DNA of 64,000 nt from Candidatus Omnitrophota bacterium (GTDB lineage: Bacteria > Omnitrophota > Gorgyraeia > Gorgyraeales > Gorgyraeaceae), in contig JAHJQM010000010.1 in NCBI GenBank assembly GCA_018819285.1, positions 10,930-74,929 on the forward strand, read 5' to 3'. Below the pieces are notes generated by a model. That model had not been told where the DNA came from. It did not search any database and saw nothing but the letters and a program-made list of their open reading frames with translations. Of the stretch, positions 6,325-64,000 are shown piece by piece. The number at the start of each line of letters is the position of its first letter. Within the stretch, counting starts at the first letter, position 1. The position numbers and the translations under genes are program-made.

Positions 6325-6772
6325 TTTTGACCCTATTACGTATGGGCATTTGGACATCATAAAAAGGGCAATCAAAATATTTGATAAAGTTATTGTAGCA
6401 GTGGCGCATAATAGCGAAAAAGACCCCCTTTTTAATGTTTCTGAAAGAGTCGAACTTTTAAAAAAGGTTACCAGAGGCATTAAAGGTGTTGAGATAGATG
6501 ATTTTCAAGGCCTAGTAGTAGATTATGTGAAAAGCAAAAAATCTAAAGTTGTCATAAGAGGACTCAGGATGATTTCAGATTTTGAATTTGAGTTTCAGAT
6601 GGCGCTTACAAACAGGAAACTTTCTAAAGATGTTGAGACAATATTCATGATGCCATCAGAGGCATATTCTTATCTGTCTTCAAAATTAATAAAGGAAGCT
6701 GCTAGCCTTGGAGCAAATTTAAAAGGTTTTGTGCCGGCATTTGTTGAAAAAGCAATAAAAGCGAAATTATGA
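6296..6772 (+). CDS. coaD: phosphopantetheine adenylyltransferase
   Basis: MKNIAIYPGSFDPITYGHLDII… (T/HxGH nucleotidyltransferase motif); 158 aa. Conserved rsmD-coaD gene order. Confidence 0.9.
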   Translation: MKNIAIYPGSFDPITYGHLDIIKRAIKIFDKVIVAVAHNSEKDPLFNVSERVELLKKVTRGIKGVEIDDFQGLVVDYVKSKKSKVVIRGLRMISDFEFEFQMALTNRKLSKDVETIFMMPSEAYSYLSSKLIKEAASLGANLKGFVPAFVEKAIKAKL

Positions 6773-7782
6773 ACTTTTTAGAAAAGATATACGAACGTGG
6801 CCGTAAGGCGAAGAAAAAGATTCTACTATCAGAACCGCACGATGAAAGAGTTCTTAGGGCCATAGAGAGTATTTTAAAATCCGGGATTTGTGTGCCTGTT
6901 CTGATAGGCGATCATGAAGAGGCAAATGGAGTGGCAAAAAAACAAGGGATAGATTTGAAAGGACTGGAGATAATAGATAATAAAAAATCAAAAGATTTGG
7001 ATAAATATGTAGCCTTATATTGCGAAAAACGTAAGCACAAAAAAATTAGTTCCGAAGATGCATTAAAAATAATCACAGAAAATCCTGTTTTTTACGCCAG
7101 CCTTATGGTTAGCGCTGGAGATGCAGATGGATCTGTGGCAGGCGCTTCTATAACTACCCGTGATGTTGCAAAAGCGGCTATCTATTGCATAGGCCCAGCA
7201 GAGAATATAAAAACAGTTTCGAGCTCAACGCTTTTAATACTGGACGATAAGACTCTCGGGTCTAACGGTATCTTTATATATGCTGATGCAGGTATCGTGC
7301 CTGATCCAACTGCAGACGAGCTGGCAGATATTGCAATATCAAGCGCAAGGATGGCAAAGATACTATTAGATGACCAGCCAAAGATTGCGATGTTGAGTTA
7401 CTCAACTAAAGGCAGCGGCGGCTCTAGTAAAAGCATACAGAAAGTCCAAGAAGCTACAAGGATTGCAAGAGAGAGAGAGCCTGACTTACTCATAGAAGGA
7501 GAAATACAGGTCGATTGTGCAGTAGTGCCGGAAGTAGCTCATAGAAAAGACCCTAATTCCAGAATTAAAGGCAGAGCAAATATTTTTATATTTCCAAATT
7601 TAGATGCCGGAAATATTTCATATAAATTAACTCAACGCCTTGCAAAAGCGCGCGCTATAGGACCGCTTCTCCAGGGTCTTCAGAAACCAGCCAGCGACCT
7701 GTCGCGCGGCTGCGATTTTCAGGATATTATAGATGCAGTTGCGATAACAGCTGTCAGGGCACAAGGCGGGTTATTAGTTTAG
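6769..7782 (+). CDS. pta: phosphate acetyltransferase
   Basis: PTA_PTB family similarity along the full length; 337 aa; immediately upstream of acetate kinase. Confidence 0.85.
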   Translation: MNFLEKIYERGRKAKKKILLSEPHDERVLRAIESILKSGICVPVLIGDHEEANGVAKKQGIDLKGLEIIDNKKSKDLDKYVALYCEKRKHKKISSEDALKIITENPVFYASLMVSAGDADGSVAGASITTRDVAKAAIYCIGPAENIKTVSSSTLLILDDKTLGSNGIFIYADAGIVPDPTADELADIAISSARMAKILLDDQPKIAMLSYSTKGSGGSSKSIQKVQEATRIAREREPDLLIEGEIQVDCAVVPEVAHRKDPNSRIKGRANIFIFPNLDAGNISYKLTQRLAKARAIGPLLQGLQKPASDLSRGCDFQDIIDAVAITAVRAQGGLLV

Positions 7783-7785
7783 AAC

Positions 7786-7852
7786 TAATTCCTTAGCTAA
7801 TTTACACCCGCTAAAGTTCTTTGACGGGTGTAAATTCAGAGGTGACTATACA
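7786..7852 (+). promoter_or_regulatory. conserved 5' leader cassette L1, copy 1: TTAATTCCTTAGCTAATT + 10-bp-stem hairpin (TTTACACCCG…CGGGTGTAAA) + AAATTCAGAGGTGACTATACA, then TTG start of ackA
   Basis: Seen in sequence. The same flanking motifs recur at 21901-21983 and 52021-52099. Confidence 0.7.
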
Positions 7853-8896
7853 TTGTTAATTCTTGTTTTAAATAGCGGGAGTTCTTCAATAAAATACAAG
7901 CTTTTTGATATTCAAGTTAGTTCGGAAAGGCTTTTGGATAAAGGGCTTTTAGAGAGGATAGGAGAAAAGATCCCTAGCCATAAAGAGGCTATTAATATTA
8001 TATTAGATAAGGCAGGGTCTAAGATAGATGCTGTGGGCCACAGGGTTGTGCATGGAGGCGACAGATTCAAGGAGTCTATTTTAATAGATGATAATGTTAT
8101 AAAAGCGATAGAGGATTTTATTGAACTGGCGCCGCTGCATAATCCGCCAAGCCTATTGACAATAAATGAATCGAGGAAAATACTCTCAAATATTCCCCAT
8201 GTGGCTGTATTTGATACAGCTTTTTATTATGACATGCCTGAGTATGCGTATTTTTATGCGATCCCCTATAAATTTTATGAAAAGTATAAGATTCGTAAAT
8301 ATGGTTTTCATGGAACCAGCCACAGATATGTATCTGAACAGGCAGAGCGTCTTTTAAAGAAGCCTTTAAATGAACTCAAGCTTATTACATGTCACCTTGG
8401 GAATGGGTGCAGCATAACCGCTGTAAAAAACGGCAAGGCAATTGATACAAGCATGGGTTTTACTCCTCTAGAAGGCCTTGTGATGGGCACGCGTTCAGGC
8501 GATCTGGACCCGGCTATCATACCTTATATAATGGAAAAAGAAAATATAGATGTAAATGCAGTTATGGATATTCTAAATAAAAAAAGCGGACTTTTAGGTA
8601 TTTCCGGGTTAAGCAACGACATGCGTGAACTGATGAAAGAAAAAGGCGCAAATAAAAAAGCAAAATTGGCGTTGGATATTTTTATTTACAGGATAAAAAA
8701 ATATATAGGTGCTTATATGGGCGTAATGTCAGGATGCGATGCAGTGATTTTCACAGGGGGCATAGGAGAGAATAACCCAGGCCTTATTGAGGAAATTTGT
8801 AAAGGCGTCGTTTCAAAGGAGACAAAGACCCTGGTGATTCCTACAGACGAAGAATTGATGATTGCCCGGGACACCTATCGCATTGCAGTAAGTTGA
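7853..8896 (+). CDS. ackA: acetate kinase (TTG start)
   Basis: LVLNSGSSSIKYKLF N-terminus and a C-terminal …VIPTDEELMIARDT… motif. TTG start 8 nt after a GAGGTGA Shine-Dalgarno. Confidence 0.85.
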   Translation: MLILVLNSGSSSIKYKLFDIQVSSERLLDKGLLERIGEKIPSHKEAINIILDKAGSKIDAVGHRVVHGGDRFKESILIDDNVIKAIEDFIELAPLHNPPSLLTINESRKILSNIPHVAVFDTAFYYDMPEYAYFYAIPYKFYEKYKIRKYGFHGTSHRYVSEQAERLLKKPLNELKLITCHLGNGCSITAVKNGKAIDTSMGFTPLEGLVMGTRSGDLDPAIIPYIMEKENIDVNAVMDILNKKSGLLGISGLSNDMRELMKEKGANKKAKLALDIFIYRIKKYIGAYMGVMSGCDAVIFTGGIGENNPGLIEEICKGVVSKETKTLVIPTDEELMIARDTYRIAVS

Positions 8897-41479: not shown

Positions 41480-42516
41480 TAATAATAGTTAATTTAGTAG
41501 GTTTTTTTATTATAGCTATCCTGATGTTATTTTTTAATAAAAAGGCCAGAGAGTCTGCATTAAAGGAGAACGAAGAAAAGATAAATGTTCTTCGTCGCGA
41601 ATGGGGCGATACGCTTTCTAAGAACACAGAGCTTATTTTAAAACAGCTTAATGAAAGCGCCAAGGTCCAGCAGATAGTAAGCTCCGGCATGGGAGAGAGG
41701 CTTGATAACGCGACAAAGGTTTTCGGCGATGTGAAAAAAAGCCTTGGTTCCCTGGATGAAAAAACCCAGCAGATTTACGAGGTTGGCAAGGATATAGCGA
41801 GTTTACAGGAAATACTCAAGGCCCCTAAGATGAGGGGCGGGCTTGGAGAACTGTTTTTAGAGTCGCTTCTTGAGCAGATAATGCCTTATAAGGATTTTTA
41901 TGAGCTTCAGTATTGTTTCAAGACAGGCGAAAGAGTGGATGCTGCCATCAAGATAGGCAGCAGGCTTGTGCCTGTGGATTCAAAATTTCCACTCGAGAGT
42001 TTTAAACGTTTTGTGGAAGTGACAGGCGATGAGGATAAAAAACGCGCGAAAAGGGAATTTATAAAAGCTGTAAAGACACATATAGATGACATTGCAGCTA
42101 AATATATACTTCCTGACGAAGGTACTTATGATTTTGCCCTTATGTACATACCTGCGGAAAATGTGTATTATGAGACGATCATAAAAGACGAGGTCTTCGG
42201 AGAAGAAAAATCCATATTCAGCCATGCCATATCCAAAAAAGTAATACCTGTATCTCCGAATAGTTTTTATGCGTATCTGCAGGTTATTATCCTTGGCATG
42301 AAAGGGTTGAAGGTAGAAGAAAAGGCGCAGGAAGTGATCAAGATGCTTATTACCTTGAAAGGCTCTCTTGGAAAATTCACAGAGGATTTTGAGATAATAG
42401 GGACTCATCTTGATAATATAAAATCAAGTTATGAAAGGGCAGTAAAAAGTTTAGATAAATTCGAAGACAAGCTACTCTCAGTGGATTCACTGGAAGAAAA
42501 GAAAAAGTTAACTTGA
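41464..42516 (+). CDS. rmuC: DNA recombination protein RmuC
   Basis: N-terminal TM, coiled coil and a conserved RmuC C-terminal domain (…KMRGGLGELFLE…VPVDSKFP…); 350 aa. Confidence 0.8.
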   Translation: MEGKMIIIVNLVGFFIIAILMLFFNKKARESALKENEEKINVLRREWGDTLSKNTELILKQLNESAKVQQIVSSGMGERLDNATKVFGDVKKSLGSLDEKTQQIYEVGKDIASLQEILKAPKMRGGLGELFLESLLEQIMPYKDFYELQYCFKTGERVDAAIKIGSRLVPVDSKFPLESFKRFVEVTGDEDKKRAKREFIKAVKTHIDDIAAKYILPDEGTYDFALMYIPAENVYYETIIKDEVFGEEKSIFSHAISKKVIPVSPNSFYAYLQVIILGMKGLKVEEKAQEVIKMLITLKGSLGKFTEDFEIIGTHLDNIKSSYERAVKSLDKFEDKLLSVDSLEEKKKLT

Positions 42517-42527
42517 AGTTTTAGCAA

Positions 42528-42562
42528 GGTTTGGAACACGAGGCTGTGCCCCGTTCCAAACC
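42528..42562 (+). terminator. hairpin GGTTTGGAAC-N15-GTTCCAAACC after rmuC
   Basis: Seen in sequence; 10-bp stem. No strong T-tract, so terminator function is tentative. Confidence 0.4.
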
Positions 42563-42600
42563 TGTATGAAGCTTTTAAAAATATCCACTTAGATTTGGAA

Positions 42601-42677
42601 CGGGGAGTAGCGCAGTTGGCTTAGCGCGCTTGCTTCGGGAGCAAGAGGCCGGCGGTTCGAATCCGCCCTCCCCGACC
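42601..42677 (+). tRNA. tRNA-Pro (anticodon CGG)
   Basis: Cloverleaf folded by hand: acceptor CGGGGAG/CTCCCCG, D-arm GCGC…GCGC, anticodon stem CTTGC/GCAAG with loop TTCGGGA, T-arm GGCGG-TTCGAAT-CCGCC, discriminator A and encoded CCA. Confidence 0.8.
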
Positions 42678-42749
42678 ACTCTAAAAATTACCCCTTAATC
42701 AAGTATAATATTACCCGGAATAAAGAGGTAATCCAGAGAAAAGGGTTGC

Positions 42750-52020: not shown

Positions 52021-52099
52021 TGGGAGTATATTAATTCCTTAACCAATTTTGCCCAGCCGCTATGTGAAGCGACTGGCAAAATTCAGTGGTGACTATACA
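52021..52099 (+). promoter_or_regulatory. 5' leader cassette L1, copy 3 (TTAATTCCTTAACCAATT … imperfect hairpin … AAATTCAGTGGTGACTATACAT + ATG)
   Basis: Seen in sequence. Confidence 0.7.
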
Positions 52100-53129
52100 T
52101 ATGCCAGAATTAAGACGAGATCCTGTAATAGGAAGATGGGTTATAATATCTACTGAGAGGGCTAAAAGGCCGAGCGATTTTAACATCAAGCATGCGGATG
52201 AACCAGAAATGGAATGTCCTTTTTGCGAAGGCCATGAAAAAAAGACGCCTACAGAAATATTTGCAATAAGAAAACCAGGCACAAAAAAAGATACCCCAGG
52301 CTGGAACGTGAGGGTTGTGCCCAGCATAGCTCCGAAATTCAAGATAGAAGGGGAACTTGAGAGGCGCGGAGCTGGGATGTATGATGTTATGAATAATATA
52401 GGCGCCCATGAAGTGCTAATAGAGTCCCCTAAGCACCTTACTGATATATATCAATTATCAGAACTTGAAATACAAGATGTAATTAATGCTTCTATCTATC
52501 GCATCAGCGAACTCGAAAAAGACATTCGTTTTAAATATTGCCTTTTATTTAAAAATCACGGATTGAAAGCAGGAGGCAGTAAGAAAACAAAACACCTCAG
52601 GTCTCAGCTTATCGCAACGCCTGTTACGCCTACAAGAGTCAAAGAGGAACTCAGGGGCTCCATGTTTTATTTCGAATATAAAGAAAGGTGTATTTTCTGC
52701 GACATTATACGCCAGGAAATAGAAACAGGCGCAAGGATCATAATGGAGACAAAAACCATTGTGGCAATTGCGCCTTTTGCTTCAAGGTTTCCTTTTGAGA
52801 TATGGATAATGCCTAAAATTCACAGGGCAGATTTTATGAATATACAGGCTGATGAAATAAAAGATCTGGCAAATGTTTTAAAGACAGTATTTGCTAAACT
52901 TTCAAAGATATTGAACGACCCACCATATAATTATATGCTGCATACAGCTCCTTTCAGGCGGACAAGAAGACCTGGATATTGGCATACGATAGAAGAGGAT
53001 TATCATTGGCATATTGAAGTTATGCCAAGGATAACGCAGGTAGCTGGTTTTGAGTGGGGTTCAGGATTTTACATAAATCCTACTCCTCCGGAAGAAGCGG
53101 CAAAGCATTTACGTGAGGTAATTTTATAA
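52100..53129 (+). CDS. galactose-1-phosphate uridylyltransferase-like protein (HIT superfamily); active-site HxHxQ replaced by H-L-R-S-Q
   Basis: RDPVIGRWVIIS N-terminus and CPFCEGHE zinc motif. Paralog of the next gene; the second (nucleophilic) His is Arg. Confidence 0.7.
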
Positions 53130-54133
53130 TGAGTCAATTGCGAAGAGATCCAATAACAGGAAGATGGGTGGAGATAGCTGTCTCTCATCCAAAAAAATGT
53201 AATGAATTTGACATGAAACCGCAGACTAAGAAAGGCGGGACATGTCCTTTTTGTCCTGGAAACGAAAAGATGACGCCTCCTGAAATAGAGGCAGTTAGAG
53301 GCCTTAAGACAGAGCCTGATACCCCAGGCTGGACAGTCAGAGTTGTCTCTAATAAATTTCCTGCGTTGAAGATAGAAGGAGAGCTGGATAGGCGCGGCAT
53401 AGGTATGTTTGATATGTCAAACGGCATTGGCGCACACGAGGTAATAGTTGAAAATACAGATCATTATAAAAACCTGGCTGACCTGACGCAGGATGAGATA
53501 AGAGATGTGATATCAAAATATAAATCCAGGACCATAGATCTGGAAAATGATGCAAGGTTCAGATATATTTTACTTTTTAAAAATCACGGGGAATCTGCAG
53601 GCGCGTCGCTTGAGCATTCGCATACCCAGCTAGTAGCATTGCCTATTGTGCCTAAGAGGGTTAAGGAAGAATTAAAAGGCGCCCAGAATTATTTTAAATA
53701 CAGAGAGAGATGCGTTTTCTGCGATATGATAGCGCAGGAGCAGCAGGAAAAAGAGAGAATAGTGTTTGAAAATAAACATTTTCTAGCATTTTGCCCTTTC
53801 GTGTCTCGCTTTCCATTCGAGATATGGTTATTGCCAAAATCTCATAGCTCTGAATTTAAATCAATAGATGATTCTGCGATTTACGATATGGCAGGCGCAT
53901 TAAAAGAAGTCCTTGTGAGGTTGAAATTAAGACTTAATGACCCTGCGTATAATTTTATAATTCACACTGCGCCTATTAGAGACGGGGTTTATGAAGAATT
54001 CCATTGGCATCTTGAGATAATGCCCAAATTGACAAATGTAGCTGGTTTTGAATGGGGTTCAGGCCTCTATATAAATCCTTCCTCGCCTGAAATAACTGCT
54101 AAGTGCTTAAGAGAAACGTGCACAGCAAAGTAA
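53129..54133 (+). CDS. galT: galactose-1-phosphate uridylyltransferase-like protein (canonical H-S-H-T-Q active site)
   Basis: RDPITGRWVEIA, CPFCPGNE and SLEHSHTQL motifs; 334 aa. Confidence 0.75.
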   Translation: MSQLRRDPITGRWVEIAVSHPKKCNEFDMKPQTKKGGTCPFCPGNEKMTPPEIEAVRGLKTEPDTPGWTVRVVSNKFPALKIEGELDRRGIGMFDMSNGIGAHEVIVENTDHYKNLADLTQDEIRDVISKYKSRTIDLENDARFRYILLFKNHGESAGASLEHSHTQLVALPIVPKRVKEELKGAQNYFKYRERCVFCDMIAQEQQEKERIVFENKHFLAFCPFVSRFPFEIWLLPKSHSSEFKSIDDSAIYDMAGALKEVLVRLKLRLNDPAYNFIIHTAPIRDGVYEEFHWHLEIMPKLTNVAGFEWGSGLYINPSSPEITAKCLRETCTAK

Positions 54134-54175
54134 AATATAATTCACATTAAGAGTAGAGAAAATAAAATAGGTTAA

Positions 54176-55288
<1,113 letters not shown>

Positions 55289-55295
55289 GTGAGGA

Positions 55296-55470
55296 CATGA
55301 CTTACGGAGTCCGAAGGACGACATAAGTCATATGTCCGAACTTATCCTCGCCATTTTGCGGGGGATTTGAACAAACTAGAAGCCGGTTATTTTAATGTAC
55401 TACGCAAAATGGCAAGGATTAATTCGCGCATTGACTTACGTTCACTCGCTATGCTCGTTCCGTAAGTCAA
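55296..55470 (+). other. ~175-nt intergenic region with nested long-range inverted repeats (GACTTACGGAG…TTCCGTAAGTC; CTCGCCATTTTGCG…CGCAAAATGGCAAGG; local hairpins)
   Basis: Seen in sequence; no ORF. Candidate structured RNA or regulatory region. Confidence 0.4.
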
Positions 55471-55481
55471 GCGCTCACTAA

Positions 55482-56159
55482 ATGGAAAATGCTGAGGCAA
55501 GGGAATTTTCAAAGAAGATACTAGCTATCCAGGAAGAGGAAAGGCATAGGATATCTCGGGATCTTCATGACGAGATAGGCCAATTCTCAGTATCTCTTGG
55601 CTCAGCGTTGAACATAATTGAAAAAGAGATAACGAAACGTAATCTCGATAGCGCCCTCCGCGTAATAAAAGACGCAAAAATAATCTTAGCTAATACAGCA
55701 GAGAAAATCAGAGCGCTTTTTATAGACCTGAGGCCTGCGGAGTTAGGCATGCTTGGACTTCCGTCAGTCTTGCGCGAACTTTTCTCGCATTACACAAAGT
55801 CATATCCTTTAAATATAAAATTCAAAGAAAATATAGGCAATATTCATATAAAGGAAGAGGTGGCGATTACCCTGTACAGGGTAATACAGGAGGCATTTAA
55901 TAATATTGTAAAGCATGCAAAGGCAAGAAATGTAAAGATAGAGTTATTGCTTAAAAAAGGAGAAATAAGTTTTACAATAGAAGACGATGGAATAGGGTTT
56001 GATGCAGAGGTATTTTTCAAAGATATAAACATGGATAAGCTTGGTTTACGTGGGATGAGAGAGCGGGTGGATTTATTGGATGGAAAGTTTTTACTGCAGT
56101 CTAAATCTAAGAATGGGACAAATATAAATGTAACTTTTCCAATAATTGAAGAGGCGTAA
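55482..56159 (+). CDS. cytoplasmic histidine kinase without sensor domain (HisKA_3 + HATPase_c)
   Basis: H-box RDLHDEIGQ; N, G1 and G2 boxes (DDGIGF, GLRGMRER); 225 aa; no TM or input domain. Confidence 0.8.
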   Translation: MENAEAREFSKKILAIQEEERHRISRDLHDEIGQFSVSLGSALNIIEKEITKRNLDSALRVIKDAKIILANTAEKIRALFIDLRPAELGMLGLPSVLRELFSHYTKSYPLNIKFKENIGNIHIKEEVAITLYRVIQEAFNNIVKHAKARNVKIELLLKKGEISFTIEDDGIGFDAEVFFKDINMDKLGLRGMRERVDLLDGKFLLQSKSKNGTNINVTFPIIEEA

Positions 56160-56812
56160 TGATGGCTATAGAAGTAGTCCTGGCGGATGACCATGCGATA
56201 GTAAGACAGGGCTTAAGCGCTGTGATATCTCAGGAACAAGATATAAAGGTTATCAAAGAGGCGTCAAATGGTAAAGAGGTTGTGGATATTGCAAAGAATG
56301 CTTCAGTGGATATATTCATAATTGATATAACCATGCCTATATTAAATGGCCTTGAGGCCTCAAGCCAGATAATGCAGATTAACCCAAGGAATAAAGTAAT
56401 TATACTAAGCATGCATGATAATAGGGCATTTATAGAGAGGGCTTTAAGCCTGGGAATAAAAGGGTATGTGTTAAAAGATTCAGCAGCCGATGAGATTATT
56501 CAGGCCATACGAGTAGTTTACAAGAATGAATATTTTCTTAGTCCTAGGATATCCACATTTGTAATACAGGATTACATTGATTCAAGAGGCCAGAAGATAG
56601 GAGAAAAAAAGATAGTCAGTCTTACTGGGAGAGAAAGAGAGGTTCTTCAACTTATTGCAGAAGGCTATATAAATAAGGAAGTTGCGACACATCTTAAGAT
56701 TTCTTTAAAGACCGCGCTTGCCCACAGAAATAATATAATGCAGAAACTCGGGATACACCGCCAAGCAGACCTCATTAAATATGCACTCAAAGAAGGTATA
56801 ACCACTATATAG
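56159..56812 (+). CDS. response regulator, NarL/FixJ family (REC + LuxR HTH)
   Basis: VLADDH…D phosphoacceptor region. C-terminal LTGREREVLQLIAEGYINKEVA…SLKTALAHRNNIMQKLG. Confidence 0.85.
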   Translation: MMAIEVVLADDHAIVRQGLSAVISQEQDIKVIKEASNGKEVVDIAKNASVDIFIIDITMPILNGLEASSQIMQINPRNKVIILSMHDNRAFIERALSLGIKGYVLKDSAADEIIQAIRVVYKNEYFLSPRISTFVIQDYIDSRGQKIGEKKIVSLTGREREVLQLIAEGYINKEVATHLKISLKTALAHRNNIMQKLGIHRQADLIKYALKEGITTI

Positions 56813-56944
56813 TAACCACTATATATTGTATAGGAAAAAAAGCTCTCTAAAGTAGGTAGTTATACCTATTTACAGATGCTGGGCTTTCTGGTATCATTTG
56901 GGCTCACGCGATTGGTGTCATACGCCAAAAAAAAGGAGGGGGAA

Positions 56945-57220
56945 ATGGCTATTAAGAAATGTTCGTCAAAAAAGGTGATTTTTAAGATAAGCGCGCCAAC
57001 TGCAAAGGATGTGCGCCTGGCAGGAGATTTTAATTCATGGGATGCATCTAGAGCCAATCTTAAAAAATCTAAAGATGGAGTATGGACAAGAGATTTGACC
57101 CTTAAGTCTGGACGTTATGAGTATAAATATTTAATTGACGGCCAATGGCAGAGAGACCCTTTAAATAATCTTTTCATAGTAAACGCTTTCGGTTCAGAAA
57201 ATTCAGTAATCGAGTTATAA
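56945..57220 (+). CDS. stand-alone CBM48/AMPK-beta-like glycogen-binding-module protein (~91 aa)
   Basis: VIFKISAPTAKDVRLAGDFNSWD…GVW…L…G.YEYKYLIDGQW matches CBM48. ATG at 56945 preceded by AAGGAGGGGG; the ORF opens at 56876. Confidence 0.55.
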   Translation: MAIKKCSSKKVIFKISAPTAKDVRLAGDFNSWDASRANLKKSKDGVWTRDLTLKSGRYEYKYLIDGQWQRDPLNNLFIVNAFGSENSVIEL

Positions 57221-57253
57221 GTTTACACTCTGACATTGTCAAAGTGTAAACTT
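57219..57253 (+). repeat. REP-like palindromic hairpin element, copy G (TTTACAC/GTGTAAA variant)
   Basis: AAGTTTACACTCTGACATTGTCAAAGTGTAAACTT. The TAA of the conserved ATAAGTT terminates the CBM48 gene. Confidence 0.9.
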
Positions 57254-57269
57254 ATTTAGGCGGAGGAGT

Positions 57270-58430
57270 ATGCGGATAGCCATATTTTCATGGGAATCTA
57301 TGCATTCTATTTGCGTGGGCGGGGTGGGCGTGCACGTTACAGAACTTGCATGCGGCCTTGAGCGTAAAGGCAATGAGGTTCATGTTTTTACGCGAGCTGG
57401 TAACTCTGATCAGGCATGGTATGAATGCATTCACGGCGTACATTACCATAGATGCCATTTTAACCAGAGCCCTGATTTTGTAGAAGAAATAAACAATATG
57501 TGCCGTTCTTTTGTGAATGCATTTTTCCAAACAGAGAGCGTCACAGGCCCTTTTGATGTGATTCATAGCCATGACTGGCTGACCTCAAACGCAATGGTCT
57601 GGATAAAACAGGTTAGGCCAAGCAAGGCTGTTCTTACTATACACTCAACTGAATATGGCAGGTGTGGAAACAATTTTCATGACGGCGATTCTGCAAAGAT
57701 CAGAGACCATGAAAGACATGGCACATACTGCGCAGACCATGTAATCAGTGTTTCAAATGCGCTTAAGGCTGAAATTCAGTGGATGTATAATGTGCCTGAC
57801 TGGAAGGCGGACGTAGTATATAATGGAGTTAATTACAAGAATTTTGACGGCTGGATAGATCCTGCGGCAGTCCGGCGTTATTATGGAATAGGGCCTATGG
57901 ATCCAATGGTTCTTTTTGTGGGCAGGATTGTTTATCAAAAAGGCCCGGATCTTTTGATAGAGGCTATTTCGCATATACTTAAATATTACAATAATGCAAA
58001 GTTTGTTTTTGTGGGAGACGGAGAGATGCGCTGGGGCGTGGAGGATAGGGCAAAAGAGATCGGCGTTCATCACGCCACAAGGTTTATAGGCTTTAATAAT
58101 GGATGGAAGCTTTCCGATCTTTACAAGGCAACAGACATTGTGTGCATGCCTTCGAGAAACGAGCCTTTTGGAATAGTCTTATTAGAGGCGTGGAGCGCAG
58201 GGAAGCCTGTGGTGGCCACTTCAAACGGCGGGCCCGGGGAAATAATATGGCATGACATAACAGGTTTAAAAGTTTATCCAAATCCTGAATCAATAGCATG
58301 GGGCGTAGGCACTGCGTTTTCAGATTTTGACCACGCAAGGTGGATGGGCGCTAATGGCAGGATTGCAGTTGAAACTGTTTTTTCCTGGGATGCTGTAGCT
58401 GACCAGGTATTGGACATTTATGGCCGTTAA
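57270..58430 (+). CDS. GT-B glycosyltransferase (family 4, glycogen/alpha-glucan synthase-like)
   Basis: N-terminal …VGGVGVHV…; C-terminal E-x7-E region EPFGIVLLEAWSAGKPVVAT; 386 aa; lies in the alpha-glucan locus. Confidence 0.75.
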   Translation: MRIAIFSWESMHSICVGGVGVHVTELACGLERKGNEVHVFTRAGNSDQAWYECIHGVHYHRCHFNQSPDFVEEINNMCRSFVNAFFQTESVTGPFDVIHSHDWLTSNAMVWIKQVRPSKAVLTIHSTEYGRCGNNFHDGDSAKIRDHERHGTYCADHVISVSNALKAEIQWMYNVPDWKADVVYNGVNYKNFDGWIDPAAVRRYYGIGPMDPMVLFVGRIVYQKGPDLLIEAISHILKYYNNAKFVFVGDGEMRWGVEDRAKEIGVHHATRFIGFNNGWKLSDLYKATDIVCMPSRNEPFGIVLLEAWSAGKPVVATSNGGPGEIIWHDITGLKVYPNPESIAWGVGTAFSDFDHARWMGANGRIAVETVFSWDAVADQVLDIYGR

Positions 58431-59670
58431 AAAACCAAAAATTAAAAAAAGAAATTCTATAGAACGCGTTTATAAAGATGGGAGAGAGGCTATTATAAAG
58501 GCTATGAAGAAGAAGCCGCTCCTACAAAAGAAAACTCCGCGAGTAACGGCTACTGTTTCCAGTGTGGTCAAGCCCGCTGTAATTCTAGAAAAAAAAGTAC
58601 AATCAACGCCCATAACAATAAATGAGTACGAACTCCCTTCTTATAACAATACAACAAGGATTACTTTGATAGCAAAAGACCCTTTCTGGGTATATGCTTA
58701 CTGGGAAATTGCCGAGAGTTCAATAGAAGACGTAAAGCGCCAGTTAGGCGGCAACTTGGACGGCACAAGGTTTATTGTCCGTATGTATGATGTGACATAT
58801 AAAGATTTTAACGGGTTTAACGCCAATCATTGGTTTGATATAGAAGTAGGCCGGTATTCAAATAACTGGTATATAAGCTTATGGAATGACAATGTATCTT
58901 ATTGTGCAGATTTAGGCATAGTCCATGCTTCCGGAAGATTTTTCCCGATAGCCAGGTCTAATTTTGTGCATACGCCTCGGTCCAATTCATCTAACAGGTT
59001 TGAAGAGATATGGATGGACCTTGCTCAGGAGCAGGAGCTCTCAGGTGCGCCGACGCCTTGCAATAAAATTAAAGGAGCTGCCTATCCTAAGACAGGTCAA
59101 AGGGTTCAATACGATGCAGCAGGCAGGTTCAGCTACTCTAGCGTATCTAAAAAAAGAAAGCTTTACCTTAGTGAAGCAGATTTAAGAGCGTATTACAGTA
59201 AATTTTCTCCTTTATTGAGAAAACGGTTGTTCTTGCGTATTTCCAGAAAAAAAATATACAAGTATTTATATTCCAAGATGTCAGGCGCAGAATGGCAGGA
59301 CTTGCTTTATTTTAGAAGGCTACATGAGGCAAAATTTGGCAGAAAGATTATGATTGGCGCCTCTGAATTTACATATCTGGGCGGAAGCGAAAATCTTCAA
59401 GGCGGGGCAAGCGAATTTGTCCAGCCGGATAAAAAACGCAAATTCTTTTTTGAAATAGGCGCAGAGCTTATTGTTTATGGCCGCACAGAACCTGACGCAG
59501 AGGTAATGCTTGGGGATAAAAAAGTGGATCTCAAGCCTGACGGAACTTTCAGCATGAGGTTTGCGCTTCCTGATGGGAAAATCCCGTTACCTTTTATAGC
59601 CACTTCAAAAGATAAAATAGATATTAGGAAAATTACAACCCAAGTAGAACGCAACACATCCTATGCATAA
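58420..59670 (+). CDS. DUF4912-domain protein
   Basis: …DPFWVYAYWEI…RMYDVT…WYISLW… central region typical of DUF4912, which is commonly encoded next to GH57 genes; 416 aa. Confidence 0.55.
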   Translation: MAVKKPKIKKRNSIERVYKDGREAIIKAMKKKPLLQKKTPRVTATVSSVVKPAVILEKKVQSTPITINEYELPSYNNTTRITLIAKDPFWVYAYWEIAESSIEDVKRQLGGNLDGTRFIVRMYDVTYKDFNGFNANHWFDIEVGRYSNNWYISLWNDNVSYCADLGIVHASGRFFPIARSNFVHTPRSNSSNRFEEIWMDLAQEQELSGAPTPCNKIKGAAYPKTGQRVQYDAAGRFSYSSVSKKRKLYLSEADLRAYYSKFSPLLRKRLFLRISRKKIYKYLYSKMSGAEWQDLLYFRRLHEAKFGRKIMIGASEFTYLGGSENLQGGASEFVQPDKKRKFFFEIGAELIVYGRTEPDAEVMLGDKKVDLKPDGTFSMRFALPDGKIPLPFIATSKDKIDIRKITTQVERNTSYA

Positions 59671-61288
59671 AGGTTATCTATGTTTAGTTCTTCATGCACA
59701 CCTTCCATTTGTCAGACATCCTGAAGAGGAGAATTTTCTTGAGGAGAACTGGCTCTACGAAGCCATCACAGAAACTTATATACCTTTTATACAAGTTTTT
59801 GAAAAATTAATCGAAGACCATGTGGATTTCCGCATAACAATGTCCCTGACGCCCACCTTGGCGTCCATGCTTCAGGACGAACTCCTTCAAAACAGATATA
59901 TAAGGCATATTGATAAATTAATAGAACTTGCTGACAAGGAGGTCCAGCGCACAGGCTATGACCCTAAATTTCACGGCCTTGCCCTGATGTATTACAGGAA
60001 GTTTGTGGAGACAAGAGAGATATTTATAGATAAATGCAAAAAAGACCTGGTATCCGCATTTAAAAGATTCCAGGATCTTGGATGTGTTGAGATACTTGCT
60101 TCCTGCGCTACTCACGGATTTCTTCCTATATTAGGTGTAAATCCAACTGATGCAGATGCCCAGGTAAAAGTTGGCGTTGAACATTACAGAAAGACATTCG
60201 GCAGGGACCCTGTTGGGTTCTGGCTTCCTGAATGTGGATATGCCCCAGGCATTGACAATTTTTTAGCAGACTCTGGGATTAAATATTTCTTTGTAGATTC
60301 GCATGGAATTGTAAACGCAGATCCAACGCCAAAGTATAGCGTATACGCGCCTTTATACTGCCCTTCAGGAGTTGCCGCATTCGGGAGAGACTGGGAATCT
60401 TCCAAGCAGGTCTGGAGCTCAAAAGAAGGTTATCCAGGAGACCCTGATTACAGGGAATACTATAAGGATATAGGCCATGAATTGGAGTATGAGTATATAA
60501 AACCGTATATTCATCCAATTGGATTCAGGATAAATACAGGGCTTAAATACTGGAGGATAACAGGAGGTACTGATCATAAGGAGCCGTATGTGCCTGAATG
60601 GGCAAAGGAAAAAGCAGCTACGCACGCAGGGAACTTTATGTTTAACCGCGAAAAACAGATAGAGCATATTGCGTATCATATGGACAGAAAGCCTATGATC
60701 ATTTCTCCTTATGACGCAGAATTATTCGGGCACTGGTGGTTTGAAGGCCCGATGTGGATTGATTTTTTGATACGTAAAATTGCGTATGACCAAAAAACAG
60801 TAAAGCTTGCCACGCCGTCAGATTATCTAAGAGAATACCCTGTTAACCAGATGTCGGTTCCGTCAACATCTACTTGGGGTTATAAAGGTTATAATGAGGT
60901 TTGGCTGGAAGGAAGCAACGACTGGATTTACAAACATCTGCATGTTGCAGGCGAGAGGATGAAAGAATTGGCTGAAAGATTTTTCGATTGCATGGAAAAG
61001 GACAAAAATGACCTGGAGAGACGCGCATTGAATCAGGCTGCGAGAGAGCTTCTCCTTGCGCAGGCAAGCGATTGGCCATTTATAATGAAAACAGGCACGA
61101 TGGTAGAATATGCTAATAAAAGGGTGAAGCTTCACATAAATAGATTTACACATATTTACAAGGATATGCTGAACGGCTCTATTGATAAAGAATGGCTTAA
61201 AGAGGTTGAATCAAGGGATAATATTTTTTCTGATATGGATTGTGCTAAATATTATATTCAAAACAAAATAAGTAAAGGAGTGGTATGA
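59663..61288 (+). CDS. glycoside hydrolase family 57 1,4-alpha-glucan branching enzyme
   Basis: LVLHAHLPFVRHPE N-terminus with downstream catalytic Glu/Asp regions (WLPECGY, SPYDAELFGHWWFEG); 541 aa. Confidence 0.8.
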   Translation: MHKGYLCLVLHAHLPFVRHPEEENFLEENWLYEAITETYIPFIQVFEKLIEDHVDFRITMSLTPTLASMLQDELLQNRYIRHIDKLIELADKEVQRTGYDPKFHGLALMYYRKFVETREIFIDKCKKDLVSAFKRFQDLGCVEILASCATHGFLPILGVNPTDADAQVKVGVEHYRKTFGRDPVGFWLPECGYAPGIDNFLADSGIKYFFVDSHGIVNADPTPKYSVYAPLYCPSGVAAFGRDWESSKQVWSSKEGYPGDPDYREYYKDIGHELEYEYIKPYIHPIGFRINTGLKYWRITGGTDHKEPYVPEWAKEKAATHAGNFMFNREKQIEHIAYHMDRKPMIISPYDAELFGHWWFEGPMWIDFLIRKIAYDQKTVKLATPSDYLREYPVNQMSVPSTSTWGYKGYNEVWLEGSNDWIYKHLHVAGERMKELAERFFDCMEKDKNDLERRALNQAARELLLAQASDWPFIMKTGTMVEYANKRVKLHINRFTHIYKDMLNGSIDKEWLKEVESRDNIFSDMDCAKYYIQNKISKGVV

Positions 61289-62607
61289 AAATAAATTCAT
61301 ATTTTGGCATAGCGCTTCATATGCATCAACCAGTAATTCCAGCAGGCGGCTCTGACATCAGGACAGCGAAACTGATTTCTAATTTGCAATATATGATGGA
61401 TCATCAGGATATCGGAGACAATCACAATGCGTCTGTATTTTTGAATTGTTATTCAAGGATAGCTGATTTTGTAAGAGAACTTTCGGGCGAAGGTAAAAAT
61501 CCAAGGATCATGCTGGATTATTCGGGAAATCTTCTTTGGGGCCTTAAGGATATGGGTGAAGAAAGAGTCTTGGATAATCTCAAGCTCGTTACCTGCGATA
61601 AAAAATATTCCGGGTATGTGGAATGGCTCGGGACAATGTTGTCGCATTCCGTGGTCAGTTCTACTCCTGTCCCGGACATAAGACTTCATATAAAAGAATG
61701 GCAGGGTTATTTTGCGTCAATATTCGGACAAAAAGCCCTTAAAAAGGTCAAAGGGTTTTCTAGCCCTGAGATGCATCTTCCGATCCATCCTGATGTGTGT
61801 TTTGAATACATAAAAGCTTTGAAAGAATGCGGATATAAATGGCTCATGGTCCAGGAGCATACGATAGAAAACCTGGACGGCACGTCTGTAAGAAGGCCGC
61901 ATTTTCCACATAAGTTAGTCGCTAAAAATTCTCTTGGAGAAAAGGCAGAGATAACAGTTATTATAAAGACTCAAGGGTCTGATAATAAACTCATTGGCCA
62001 GATGCAGCCATATTACGAAGCCAAGACTTTAGGACATGAGATATACTGCGGTGTTGAACTTCCACCTTTTGTAGCTCAGATAGGGGATGGAGAAAATGGT
62101 GGAGTAATGATGAATGAATTTCCAGAAGCGTACAAGAAGGCTTTTCGAGAAACAGGCTGTGAAGGCACAGCCGGCATGAATGGAACAGAGTACCTTGAAT
62201 TTGTAAAACAGGCTGGTTTGGACGAAAAGTCATTTATGCCTGTACAGCCTATTTCTCAGAGCAAGATCTGGGAATTTTTAAAGGAATATTCTCATGGCGC
62301 AGCTGACAAGGCTATTGAAAAAGTGAAACAAAAATATCCAGGCTTCAGTTTAGAAAAGGCATCATGGACGAACGATAAAGATTGGGTAAAGGGTTACGAA
62401 GATATAATGGATCCCATAATCCAGCTTAGCGCGGCATTTCATAAGAAATTTGACAATAAAAATATAGATAAAGCAAGCCCTGCTTATAAAAAAGCGCTTC
62501 TTTATTTATTATTATCTCAGACAAGTTGCTTTCGTTATTGGGGAACAGGCGTATGGACAGATTATGCAAAGGAGATCTGCCGCAGGGGTATGGAAGCGCT
62601 AAAATAA
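61285..62607 (+). CDS. GH57-like protein (HxHQP motif)
   Basis: IALHMHQP N-terminal motif; 440 aa; family assignment is tentative. Confidence 0.5.
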   Translation: MKINSYFGIALHMHQPVIPAGGSDIRTAKLISNLQYMMDHQDIGDNHNASVFLNCYSRIADFVRELSGEGKNPRIMLDYSGNLLWGLKDMGEERVLDNLKLVTCDKKYSGYVEWLGTMLSHSVVSSTPVPDIRLHIKEWQGYFASIFGQKALKKVKGFSSPEMHLPIHPDVCFEYIKALKECGYKWLMVQEHTIENLDGTSVRRPHFPHKLVAKNSLGEKAEITVIIKTQGSDNKLIGQMQPYYEAKTLGHEIYCGVELPPFVAQIGDGENGGVMMNEFPEAYKKAFRETGCEGTAGMNGTEYLEFVKQAGLDEKSFMPVQPISQSKIWEFLKEYSHGAADKAIEKVKQKYPGFSLEKASWTNDKDWVKGYEDIMDPIIQLSAAFHKKFDNKNIDKASPAYKKALLYLLLSQTSCFRYWGTGVWTDYAKEICRRGMEALK

Positions 62608-62636
62608 ATGTAACAATATTATTTCATACTTTTGCT

Positions 62637-62941
62637 CTGCTCAGGCCAGCAGTTTGAGAGGCCTTTTTGACACGAGCGGGCACGGTGTCTGTTGAGCCAG
62701 GTGGGGCCATTCGGCACTGAATCGTTTCGCCGTCCGCTACGGTTTATGGTTCGTTCTTCTGTCGACTATCGTATTGTCAACCGATCAGAACTCACCATAA
62801 ATCCTTGCGGACTTTTGCCGAAACGATTCTAATGTGCCTCAGACCCCGCCTGGCTCAACAGACGAGCGAGTGTCAAAACGGAGCAAAATTTTTACGCTGG
62901 GAAAATTTTGCGTCCTCGCAAACTGCTGGTCTGGGCAGAGA
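62637..62941 (+). ncRNA. ~305-nt GC-rich nested inverted-repeat element (candidate structured ncRNA or MITE-like insertion)
   Basis: Outer arms CTCTGCTCAGGCCAGCAGTTTGAGAGG (62637-62663) and CCTCGCAAACTGCTGGTCTGGGCAGAG (62915-62941). Further nested reverse-complement blocks lie inside. No ORF of note, and GC content is clearly above flanking DNA. Confidence 0.45.
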
Positions 62942-63032
62942 TCAGGAACATAGCCATTAAAATAGGTCTTAAACAGACTGATTGACAAGGATTTTATTAT
63001 CTGATATAGTCTATAAAACACAAGGAGGAAAG

Positions 63033-63224
63033 ATGATAAAGAAACTGAAGAAAGTCTTATCGCTGGATAATAATGAAAATCGTGTCAGCCGTGAAGAATT
63101 TATGCAGCTTGTCCAGAAAAAGGCATACGAAATTTATGAAAAAAGAGGGTGTCAATCTGGCAATGACCTGGAAGATTGGCTTAATGCTGAAAGGTTAGTG
63201 AAAGAAGACCTTGGAGTAAAATGA
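63033..63224 (+). CDS. DUF2934-family small protein
   Basis: …AYEIYEKRG…GNDLEDWLNAE… motif; strong AAGGAGG Shine-Dalgarno before the ATG at 63033; ATGA overlap with the next gene. Confidence 0.5.
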   Translation: MIKKLKKVLSLDNNENRVSREEFMQLVQKKAYEIYEKRGCQSGNDLEDWLNAERLVKEDLGVK

Positions 63225-64000
63225 TATACTGGGCGCCGCTTCTACATTTTTATCAGCCTCCGACGCAGTCTCATGATGTCCTTGCAAAAATCTGCGAAGA
63301 ATCCTACAGGCCATTAGTAAAAGTATTTAAAGAGCATCCCGAATCCAGGATTACTATAAATATGTGCGGGGTGCTTACTGAAATGCTGGGTATCCATGGT
63401 TATGGGGATGTCGTAACGGGTCTCAGGGAGCTTGGAAAAAGCGGCCAGGTTGAGTTTGTTGAATCTGCAAAATTCCACGCTATACTGCCTTTAATACCAA
63501 AGAAAGAAGCCAGGAGGCAGATAGAATTAAACAGATTAACAAACCTGTCTTTTTTTAAAAATAGCTATAAGCCAAAAGGATTTTTTCTGCCAGAGATGTG
63601 CTACTCCGATGAAACAGCCTCTATCGTAAGAGATATGGGTTATGAATGGGTTATAGTGAGCGGTATTGCCTGCCAAGGAAAATGGCCTATGGATTACGTG
63701 CCAACTTTTAAACTTTCTTCAGGCGCCATAAAGGCATTTTTCAGAGACGATATAGTCAGCAACATGATCAGTTTTAAAAACCTGGACGCCAATGGATTTG
63801 TCTCTAACGTTAAAGGCTTGGGCAAGGGGAAAGAAGATGTATATATAATTACAGCAATGGATGCGGAAACATTTGGCCACCATATAAGAGATTGGGAAAA
63901 GATATTTCTTGGAGCTGTTTACGAAATTATAGAGGATTCAGAAGAGATAAAAGTAATTAATATCAGCGACCTTCTAAAGATATTTCCTGCAGTAAAGACA
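63221..64000 (+). CDS. glycoside hydrolase family 57 protein, N-terminal part (continues beyond the window)
   Basis: LLHFYQPP N-terminal motif and …MDAETFGHH…; the ORF is open to the window end. Confidence 0.7.
   Translation, partial: MIYWAPLLHFYQPPTQSHDVLAKICEESYRPLVKVFKEHPESRITINMCGVLTEMLGIHGYGDVVTGLRELGKSGQVEFVESAKFHAILPLIPKKEARRQIELNRLTNLSFFKNSYKPKGFFLPEMCYSDETASIVRDMGYEWVIVSGIACQGKWPMDYVPTFKLSSGAIKAFFRDDIVSNMISFKNLDANGFVSNVKGLGKGKEDVYIITAMDAETFGHHIRDWEKIFLGAVYEIIEDSEEIKVINISDLLKIFPAVKT

Follow-up and report, generated by a model that had tools for sequence, protein, structure and literature searches.

A predicted GH57-based glycogen locus of Candidatus Omnitrophota with its own input-less two-component regulator

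Described glycogen systems and the Omnitrophota locus

The classical GlgC-GlgA-GlgB system with GlgP and GlgX, encoded in Escherichia coli by glgBXCAP, is the closest described counterpart of a locus that we analysed in a stretch of 64,000 nucleotides (the window) from a Candidatus Omnitrophota bacterium (assembly GCA_018819285.1, contig JAHJQM010000010.1). The window comes from a metagenome contig of 78,974 bp, and genes beyond base 64000 were read from the full contig; a public protein identical to its DUF4912 protein bears the name Candidatus Omnitrophota bacterium. Judged by its domains and gene order, the locus is a cluster for GH57-based glycogen (alpha-glucan) metabolism with its own input-less two-component regulator; it comprises about 16 kb and 14 genes and is larger than the stretch first pointed out (55482-64000) by an earlier reading of the sequence alone, here called the sequence-only reading. 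Like glgBXCAP, it encodes a GT5 GlgA, a branching enzyme and a glucanotransferase on one strand, and its predicted purpose is likewise the intracellular storage of alpha-1,4/alpha-1,6 glucan. Unlike glgBXCAP, it leaves branching and remodelling to four GH57 paralogues in place of GH13 and GH77 enzymes, adds CBM48, GT4, DUF4912 and DUF2934 proteins and an embedded two-component system, and has two GalT-like transferases at the place of the sugar-nucleotide enzyme. GlgC and GlgP were not found in the retrieved parts of the contig; for the window, neither Pfam family (NTP_transferase-type GlgC, phosphorylase) occurs among the gene calls of the retrieved parts, with about 45-49.7 kb outside this coverage, in agreement with the sequence-only reading, which had seen no glgC or glgP.

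That reading had called an alpha-glucan locus, which Pfam and NCBIfam domains and conserved gene order bear out. The nine genes that it had placed and named, from the kinase to GH57c, all lie on the + strand at its positions, and the Pfam matches of each exceed the gathering score of the family; they include a kinase without input domain, a NarL-type regulator, a stand-alone CBM48 of AMPK-beta type, a GH57 branching enzyme and a second GH57-like enzyme, all of which could be upheld on the grounds given below. Its view that the two-component system heads the locus had to be revised, as the system is embedded, with two GalT-like genes and gap upstream (52086-55288).

Described relatives also exist for the individual components. 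The branching enzyme shares the GH57 plus BE_C architecture and the catalytic Glu and Asp with the characterised enzymes TT1467/TTHA1902 of Thermus thermophilus, TK1436 of Thermococcus kodakarensis and that of Pyrococcus horikoshii, but it scores below the equivalog cut-offs and its gene is predicted to be translationally coupled to a DUF4912 gene. We know of no DUF4912-type partner described for characterised GH57 branching enzymes; to our knowledge, these enzymes lack a carbohydrate-binding module, and it is not understood in what way their polymer is engaged in vivo. The two-component pair resembles NarL and DegS-DegU systems and the DesK core in its HisKA_3 H-box, HDxxxQ motif, HATPase_c domain, receiver, GerE helix-turn-helix and NarL-like heptamer (TACCTAT), and the kinase is, like DegS, cytoplasmic by prediction. 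Unlike its relatives it lacks transmembrane, PAS, GAF and DegS N-terminal domains, equals a minimal catalytic core and forms a clade of its own tied to one genomic position. The CBM48 protein can be compared with the carbohydrate-binding module of AMPK beta and with PTST1, a plant CBM48 protein that targets granule-bound starch synthase (GBSS) to starch: it keeps the Trp, Lys, Trp and Asn residues and is encoded beside a glucosyltransferase, but is a bare 91-residue bacterial module without coiled coil, whose putative partner is a GT4 and not a GT5 enzyme. DUF4912, finally, recalls scaffold and tether proteins of other bacterial inclusions, such as PhaM and the phasins of polyhydroxybutyrate (PHB) granules and the McdB adaptors of the ParA-type McdA, in that it is by prediction non-catalytic, has a Lys/Arg-rich disordered tail and folded domains and is encoded with the polymer-modifying enzyme; it has no sequence relationship to them. 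A literature search gave no earlier description of this gene linkage or of its regulation. The proposed operator, the conserved clade of input-less kinases at one position and the widespread pair of DUF4912 and branching enzyme appear to be new, and the findings extend, but do not overturn, the current view of glycogen metabolism.

As the best explanation of the locus as a whole, we consider it probable that it consists of three transcription units, with a regulator acting at a palindrome of the CBM48 operon, partner roles for CBM48 and DUF4912 and a kinase that most likely follows its own amount and the energy state of the cell. Unit 1 would combine sugar-nucleotide and glycolytic enzymes (two GalT-like proteins and Gap) with the kinase and regulator; unit 2 would express CBM48, GT4, DUF4912, the GH57 branching enzyme and GH57b from its own promoter; and unit 3 would express DUF2934, GH57c, GlgA and a GH57 4-alpha-glucanotransferase from a separate strong and conserved promoter. 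The phosphorylated NarL-type regulator would bind the 16-bp palindrome as a dimer, most likely activating unit 2. The CBM48 protein would bind glucan and work in trans with the GT4 glucosyltransferase, and DUF4912, a non-catalytic protein of two beta-sandwiches, would work with a branching enzyme that has no carbohydrate-binding module itself. The output of the kinase would be set by its amount and by the ATP/ADP or acetyl-phosphate state, a dedicated ligand being less likely; control by amount is suggested because the gene is always joined to an upstream transcript of carbohydrate genes. The features of the two-component system and of unit 2 are as follows (where two figures are set against each other, they are score and cut-off).

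55482-56159, + strand: input-less histidine kinase, 225 residues, with only the dimerisation/histidine-phosphotransfer (DHp) and catalytic domains (Pfam HisKA_3, HATPase_c)
56159-56812, + strand: NarL/GerE-type response regulator (PF00072 Response_reg 1.3e-25, 90 bits; PF00196 GerE 6.4e-18, 64.6 bits)
56853-56868, no strand assigned: predicted operator, TAGGTA-N4-TACCTA palindrome abutting the -35 box (TAGGTAGTTATACCTA), the only exact match in the 64-kb window
56869-56897, + strand: sigma-70-like promoter of the CBM48 operon, TTTACA-17-TATCAT with TG (extended -10), 10/12 + TG in a consensus scan
56945-57220, + strand: stand-alone CBM48 protein, 91 residues (PF02922 CBM_48 6e-12, 46.1 vs 22.4; PF16561 AMPK1_CBM 5e-11, 43 vs 26.8)
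57270-58430, + strand: GT4 retaining glycosyltransferase, GlgA/GlgM-like (Pfam Glycos_transf_1, Glyco_transf_4, Glyco_transf_5)
58420-59670, + strand: DUF4912 protein (PF16258, 112.7 bits vs 29.4)
59663-61288, + strand: GH57 glycogen branching enzyme (PF03065 2.7e-40, 138.9 bits; PF09210 BE_C 2.6e-37, 127.7 bits)
61285-62607, + strand: GH57b, divergent GH57 protein of an uncharacterised subfamily, 440 residues (PF03065 7e-8, 32.5 vs 21.2, N-terminal half only)

The two-component system and the predicted promoter of the CBM48 operon

A homologue alignment of DUF4912 was used to collect 80 loci from species-representative genomes, and all open reading frames of these loci (cited by L numbers) were scored against the 14 proteins of the locus. 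The recurring core in Omnitrophota is CBM48-GT4-DUF4912-branching enzyme-GH57b, which the GalT-GalT-gap module, GH57c, GlgA and the 4-alpha-glucanotransferase join in variable order; in L022, for example, the order is GH57c, 4-alpha-glucanotransferase, core, GalT, GalT, gap. In 14 of the 80 loci, CBM48 is directly preceded by the kinase and regulator genes; these 14 loci fall into two diverged clades, whose kinases are about 45% identical to each other. The distant clade has the pair between the gene for GH57c or the 4-alpha-glucanotransferase and CBM48, with glucan genes on both sides, and in the most distant members of the kinase clade the order is GH57c, 4-alpha-glucanotransferase, kinase, regulator, CBM48, GT4, DUF4912, branching enzyme, GH57b.

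Comparison of the spacers between regulator and CBM48 genes revealed a palindrome of the general form TARGYA-N4-TRCYTA, for which all loci were scanned by regular expression. Each of these loci that bears the two-component system contains exactly one copy, located in the regulator-CBM48 spacer and fused to the TTTAC(A) of the -35 box; the distance from the regulator stop codon ranges from tens of nucleotides to more than 400, and the junction with the -35 box is fixed. Loci without the two-component system contain no palindrome except for a single copy at a contig edge (L027), and 14 of these system-free loci combine the CBM48-GT4 core with over 2 kb of sequence in front of it. In total, 15 palindromes were counted in 1.13 Mb, where block shuffles yielded 1.45 on average and 5 at most. 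Among loci fetched independently via the kinase, L087 and L088 have the N4 form, and L085 and L086 an N3-spaced variant. No second copy that might indicate autoregulation or control of other glucan promoters was found in the window or on the contig. The half-site TACCTAT fits the NarL heptamer, TACYYMT, and together these patterns make the palindrome a likely operator of the regulator. They also favour the view of the sequence-only reading that the two-component system serves the glucan genes, given that the palindrome at the CBM48 promoter and the system strictly co-occur.

The kinase consists of HisKA_3 (PF07730, residues 20-88, 33.3 bits vs 24) and HATPase_c (PF02518, residues 128-221, 50.7 vs 26.4). 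Its H-box, RISRDLHDEIGQ, contains the phospho-accepting His, and the HDxxxQ motif, the phosphatase motif of HisKA_3-type kinases, is kept. Beyond these two domains there was no Pfam match that would indicate an input domain (transmembrane, periplasmic, PAS, GAF or HAMP), and just 19 residues precede HisKA_3. The protein accordingly falls into the HisKA_3-type class of NarX, DegS and DesK and lacks the N-terminal input domain by which sensor kinases are usually recognised. All 13 positional orthologues are short (225 to about 250 residues), and a search from the kinase side retrieved a clade of proteins of 223-269 residues, 42-100% identical, with HisKA_3 and HATPase_c only; below a drop in score, the next relatives bear GAF or PAS domains. 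Because the whole clade is short and shares the same context while its next relatives have GAF or PAS domains, the missing input domain is, from the comparison of orthologues, a conserved and derived state tied to this locus and not a truncation. Acetyl-phosphate is a possible phosphodonor for a regulator paired with such a kinase.

The regulator belongs to the NarL/FixJ class by its Response_reg and GerE domains; it reaches no NCBIfam equivalog cut-off and hence corresponds to no named regulator. Its recognition helix, KT.L.HRNNIM.KL, is conserved in 17 loci and is essentially invariant, leaving nothing to covary with the variants of the half-site. Only the window (56799-56825) and L030 have a tandem duplication of TAACCACTATATA, which extends across the regulator stop codon. 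The same contig carries pta and ackA, genes of acetyl-phosphate metabolism, at 6769-8896 and an acylphosphatase gene at about 42400-42700.

The promoter is conserved beside the palindrome in relatives. The palindrome is centred near -43.5 and abuts the -35 hexamer, overlapping neither it nor the -10 hexamer. LuxR- and DosR-type activators usually sit at such a position, and for this reason, by analogy, the regulator most likely activates rather than represses the CBM48 operon. If the regulator instead acted as a repressor, the input-less kinase would mainly be a phosphatase relieving repression, for which the retained HDxxxQ motif would be suited; moreover, the core promoter is already near consensus (TTTACA-17-TATCAT with extended -10 TG), so that the need for an activator is not obvious. 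Given the abutting, non-overlapping site in the usual place of an activator, we regard repression as conceivable but unlikely. Operons without the two-component system have other upstream regions and no palindrome, which tells nothing on activation versus repression. The co-occurrence of palindrome and system would be trivial if the palindrome served the two-component transcript as a 3' hairpin or terminator, as its invariable location downstream of the regulator gene and a possible 6-bp stem with a 4-nt loop might suggest. This is improbable, as the stem is short, AT-rich and has two G-C pairs in most copies, a terminator scan makes no call, the element stays with the -35 hexamer in all loci however far the regulator stop codon lies, and its half-site fits the NarL heptamer. 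We give least credence to the notion that the two-component system is a chance neighbour of gap and central metabolism with no control of the glucan genes. The distance from gap to the kinase gene is 6-14 nt in three close relatives (L030, L006, L012), and because of this spacing the two-component genes are probably co-transcribed with gap; many Omnitrophota also have the glucan core without the system. Yet no gap gene is nearby where the pair of the second clade lies between GH57c or 4-alpha-glucanotransferase and CBM48, the palindrome is found at the CBM48 promoter only where the pair is present, and gap and the GalT-like genes themselves belong to the conserved cluster, in L022 downstream of GH57b. 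The sequence-only reading had held that co-transcription with gap would speak against a glucan function. The co-transcription is indeed probable, but the conclusion does not follow: the cluster is accompanied by gap and the GalT-like genes, so that gap belongs to the conserved neighbourhood and is not a foreign gene, and the palindrome together with the embedded position in the second clade preserves the functional link to the glucan genes.

Activation of unit 2 by the regulator, as part of the three-unit reading, is thus the explanation that we prefer, and several points weigh against it. Many Omnitrophota hold the same five-gene core without the two-component system, and the regulation is hence optional; the near-consensus CBM48 core promoter leaves room for repression; the 80 loci were those with the highest scores among at least 558 DUF4912 matches and are biased toward Omnitrophota-like sequences; and the analysis is wholly computational, with relatives that are mostly metagenome-assembled genomes. 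If the reading is correct, a kinase reduced to its core, a regulator of NarL type and a predicted 16-bp site at a defined promoter would constitute a compact glycogen-gene circuit, useful for an uncultured phylum and for the question of how kinases without input domain are controlled.

CBM48-GT4 and DUF4912-branching enzyme pairs

The CBM48 gene starts with the ATG at 56945, preceded by the Shine-Dalgarno sequence AAGGAGG, which gives a protein of 91 residues, the length stated by the sequence-only reading. It aligns with the carbohydrate-binding module of AMPK beta1 (5e-9) and retains the W, K, W and N glycogen-binding positions; FNSW, YEYK, GQW and SEN are kept in the alignment with 1z0m and 4yef. 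In 31 of 36 informative loci, a small CBM48 reading frame immediately precedes GT4, and 17 of these 31 have no two-component system. Because the pair occurs with or without the system, gene order identifies GT4, and not the kinase, as the constant partner of CBM48. The suggestion of the sequence-only reading that the module might serve the adjacent synthase is plausible in view of the binding residues, and by analogy the CBM48 protein could bring GT4 to glucan as PTST1 serves GBSS. Between CBM48 and GT4 (window 57221-57251) lies a hairpin with a 9-bp stem, GTTTACACT...AGTGTAAAC, followed by TTATTT. It may be a partial terminator that allows an excess of CBM48; the CBM48-GT4 spacer measures just 13 nt in L006, showing that the hairpin is not conserved.

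The best NCBIfam match of GT4 is the GlgM-type model glgA_Coryne (TIGR02149), which it covers at full length with 160.3 bits, below the cut-off of 302.4, so that it does not qualify as a GlgM. Its nearest solved relatives are MshA, BshA, sucrose-phosphate synthase, GlgM (6tvp, 6e-20) and archaeal GlgA. GH57b is recognised by Pfam weakly (7e-8), but conservation of its HQP motif and of the catalytic Glu (in SSPEMH) and Asp (in GDGENGG) is 95% or higher across 33 orthologues, and the catalytic residues align with those of its three paralogues, which sustains its assignment as a second GH57-like enzyme; no solved relative was found by sequence. The genes of GT4, DUF4912, branching enzyme and GH57b overlap by 11, 8 and 4 nt, and these stop/start overlaps suggest that the four are translationally coupled.

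With respect to the role of CBM48 and GT4, two further explanations have to be weighed. The sequence-only reading had proposed the stand-alone CBM48 as a possible partner of the input-less kinase, which would then report on glucan status. CBM48 opens the putatively regulated operon, adjoins the two-component genes and resembles the AMPK-beta module, which is regulatory in eukaryotes; but as CBM48 directly precedes GT4 in 17 loci lacking such a system, and neither fusion nor covariation with the kinase was seen, a sensory role is very unlikely. Alternatively, CBM48-GT4 and GH57b might form a non-classical alpha-glucan route beside GlgA, in which GT4 would be a GlgM-like maltose-1-phosphate or priming synthase and GH57b a polymerising or transferring enzyme. 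A canonical GlgA is present, leaving GT4 unneeded for ordinary elongation, the GlgM-type model is the best match and GlgM is among the nearest solved structures, and GH57b, of an uncharacterised subfamily with intact catalytic residues, is always part of the core. According to a 2024 review, what GT4 genes do when they lie among GH57 genes is an open question (PMC11046441), on which the CBM48-GT4 pairing bears. We still consider such a route doubtful, since the score of GT4 is far under the GlgM cut-off and MshA, BshA and sucrose-phosphate synthase score equally or better; nor is a GlgE-like activity known in GH57. A CBM48 protein working in trans with GT4 remains the preferred reading.

The branching enzyme exceeds the gathering scores of both GH57 and BE_C, keeps the catalytic Glu and Asp and aligns in the PE and DAE motifs. 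It matches the Thermococcales and Thermus models (NF041133, NF041566) at full length (1e-98 to 1e-103), with scores below the equivalog cut-offs (346 vs 1000, 330 vs 920). A tblastn search of the enzyme against plasmids returned only two actinobacterial GH57 genes of 27% identity.

Counted from the DUF4912 side, a GH57 branching enzyme gene lies directly 3' of DUF4912 on the same strand in 69 of the 74 informative loci (of 80), with a median gap of about 20 nt. The pair spans about nine phylum-level labels, taken from record titles and mostly of metagenome-assembled genomes, including Omnitrophota, Planctomycetes, Bacillota, Verrucomicrobia, Krumholzibacteriota, Poribacteria, Firestonebacteria and Abyssobacteria. 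The sequence-only reading had stated that DUF4912 and DUF2934 recur next to GH57 genes; this stands for DUF4912, and specifically for the branching enzyme, and holds only loosely for DUF2934, which adjoins a GH57 gene in 9 of the 80 loci (10 including this contig). The DUF4912 protein has a basic disordered N-terminus, an FN3-like DUF4912 domain (about residues 77-195), a linker and a C-terminal beta-sandwich (about 346-412). Its AlphaFold model shows two FN3-like beta-sandwich domains, no enzyme fold and disorder before and between them. The motif DPxW..AYWE is at least 90% conserved in 82 sequences, and the N-terminal tails have a median length of 74 residues with 25% Lys+Arg, a Rho_N motif being added in some homologues and phyla. 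Based on synteny and fold, we read DUF4912 as a probable non-catalytic partner of the GH57 branching enzyme. In the library searched, DUF4912 is mentioned by only two papers, neither of them on glycogen, and the synteny gives a concrete context to a large family of unknown function, which comprises 4,499 clusters (50% identity) at E<=1e-10.

Points that speak against this partner role are the moderate confidence of the model (mean pLDDT, the predicted local distance difference test, of 57; 75-86 in the domains), the generic nature of an FN3-like fold, and four loci (two cyanobacteria, one Sumerlaeota, one unclassified metagenome-assembled genome) in which no branching enzyme lies within 10 kb of DUF4912. 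Also to be counted here is the rejection of DUF4912 as a diverged CBM48: hhalign compared each domain with a profile built from 35 stand-alone CBM48 proteins and gave probabilities below 2%. The two domains showed no similarity to each other in hhalign either (probability below 2%), and the DUF4912 profile found nothing significant among all PDB sequences. Fusions of DUF4912 with GH57 were absent among the best 150 of 6,645 members (all at most 633 residues) and among 120 listed matches. The Pfam family Glucodextran_B matches the C-terminal domain of distant DUF4912 homologues, below threshold in three of four, and is a hint only.

Three Omnitrophota loci contain, a few kb from the DUF4912-branching enzyme pair, a gene for a ParA/MinD-type ATPase fused to a C-terminal CBM48 of AMPK type (L085:3975-5255, - strand; L073:921-2024, + strand; L058:5925-7004, + strand), with matches to AAA_31 (2e-45), CbiA and AMPK1_CBM (9e-15). 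The window contains no such gene. These fusions suggest an active positioning of glycogen granules. It is a speculative and rather unlikely extension of the partner role that DUF4912 acts within a granule-organising system, in which its beta-sandwiches would hold the branching enzyme or glucan and its basic tail would tether granules to the nucleoid or serve as an adaptor for the ParA-CBM48 protein. If true, glycogen granules would have a machinery for their positioning and segregation, much as PHB granules have PhaM and carboxysomes McdAB.

Flanking units and structured spacers

All genes from 52086 to 64000 are encoded on the + strand. The remaining features of the locus flank those described above.

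52086-53129, + strand: GalT-like nucleotidyl transferase 1, HIT superfamily, DUF4921/DUF4931-type (Pfam GalP_UDP_tr_C, GalP_UDP_transf, DUF4931_N, DUF4921)
53129-54133, + strand: GalT-like nucleotidyl transferase 2 (Pfam DUF4921 6.5e-15, GalP_UDP_transf, HIT)
54278-55288, + strand: gap, type I glyceraldehyde-3-phosphate dehydrogenase (Gp_dh_N, Gp_dh_C; TIGR01534, 456 bits vs 367)
55289-55481, + strand: 193-nt structured spacer that separates gap from the kinase gene (RNA fold -75.5 kcal/mol, z = -7.5; three hairpins closed by a terminal stem)
62635-62940, no strand assigned: near-perfect nested hairpin of 306 nt between GH57b and the DUF2934 promoter (inverted repeats; RNA fold -171 kcal/mol, z = -13.4)
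62982-63010, + strand: strong sigma-70-like promoter, TTGACA-17-TATAGT with TG (11/12, the best in the region), preceding DUF2934-GH57c-glgA-4-alpha-glucanotransferase
63033-63224, + strand: DUF2934 protein, 63 residues (PF11154 3.4e-12, 46.2 bits vs 22)
63221-64000, + strand: GH57c, cut by the end of the window, 403 residues on the full contig (Glyco_hydro_57 1.6e-34)

The first GalT-like protein reaches 101.4 bits with the NCBIfam model galT_1, just under the cut-off of 102.1, and the second 121 bits (cut-off 102). The pair accompanies the glucan cluster in several lineages among the 80 loci, and these DUF4921/DUF4931-type paralogues may supply or recycle a nucleoside diphosphate (NDP)-glucose donor.

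At the other end of the locus, the stop codon of DUF2934 overlaps the start of GH57c, whose nearest solved relative is the catalytic domain of the T. litoralis 4-alpha-glucanotransferase (1.8e-12). Past base 64000 follow GlgA, a GT5 enzyme according to TIGR02095 (L001:14812-16266; 553 bits vs 328), and a GH57 4-alpha-glucanotransferase with its two accessory domains (Pfam/NCBIfam). DUF2934 stands in front of GH57c in the clade of the window alone; in L041 it comes after GH57b, and in L064 and L065 after a different GH57 gene. Most GH57c orthologues lack it, and no DUF2934 fused to or upstream of distant GH57c orthologues was found. As gene order indicates, the DUF2934-GH57 association is real but loose. 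In the most distant loci that bear the two-component system, a glycogen phosphorylase gene (PF00343) lies directly 3' of GH57b (L085:16403-18720, L086:10816-13132), so that degradation genes can join the same cluster.

The promoter at 62982-63010 is conserved in L004, L006, L008, L010 and L013, including its spacer TTATCTGATAT, and a TATCnGATA palindrome overlaps the -10 region. Because this conservation exceeds what a bare promoter needs, the spacer may be a second regulatory site.

Other structured elements of the locus are not shared by relatives. The gap-kinase spacer measures 6-14 nt in L030, L006 and L012, and the 193-nt element is a lineage-specific insertion; L004 and L011 bear different hairpins there. 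The 306-nt hairpin is absent from the same five relatives that share the DUF2934 promoter (L004, L006, L008, L010, L013), where the spacer measures 61-178 nt. Rfam gave no match at E<=1 over 55000-64000, and the hairpin is thus not a known RNA family; its arms have no other copies in the window. Judged from the aligned spacers, it looks like a lineage-specific palindromic insertion and no conserved component of the system. Other, smaller insertions of palindromic type, with motifs like GATCAATTTTG...CAAAATTTG, were seen in the regulator-CBM48 spacer of L013 and in the promoter-DUF2934 spacers of L010 and L013, which suggests a family of short palindromic elements in the genomes of this clade.

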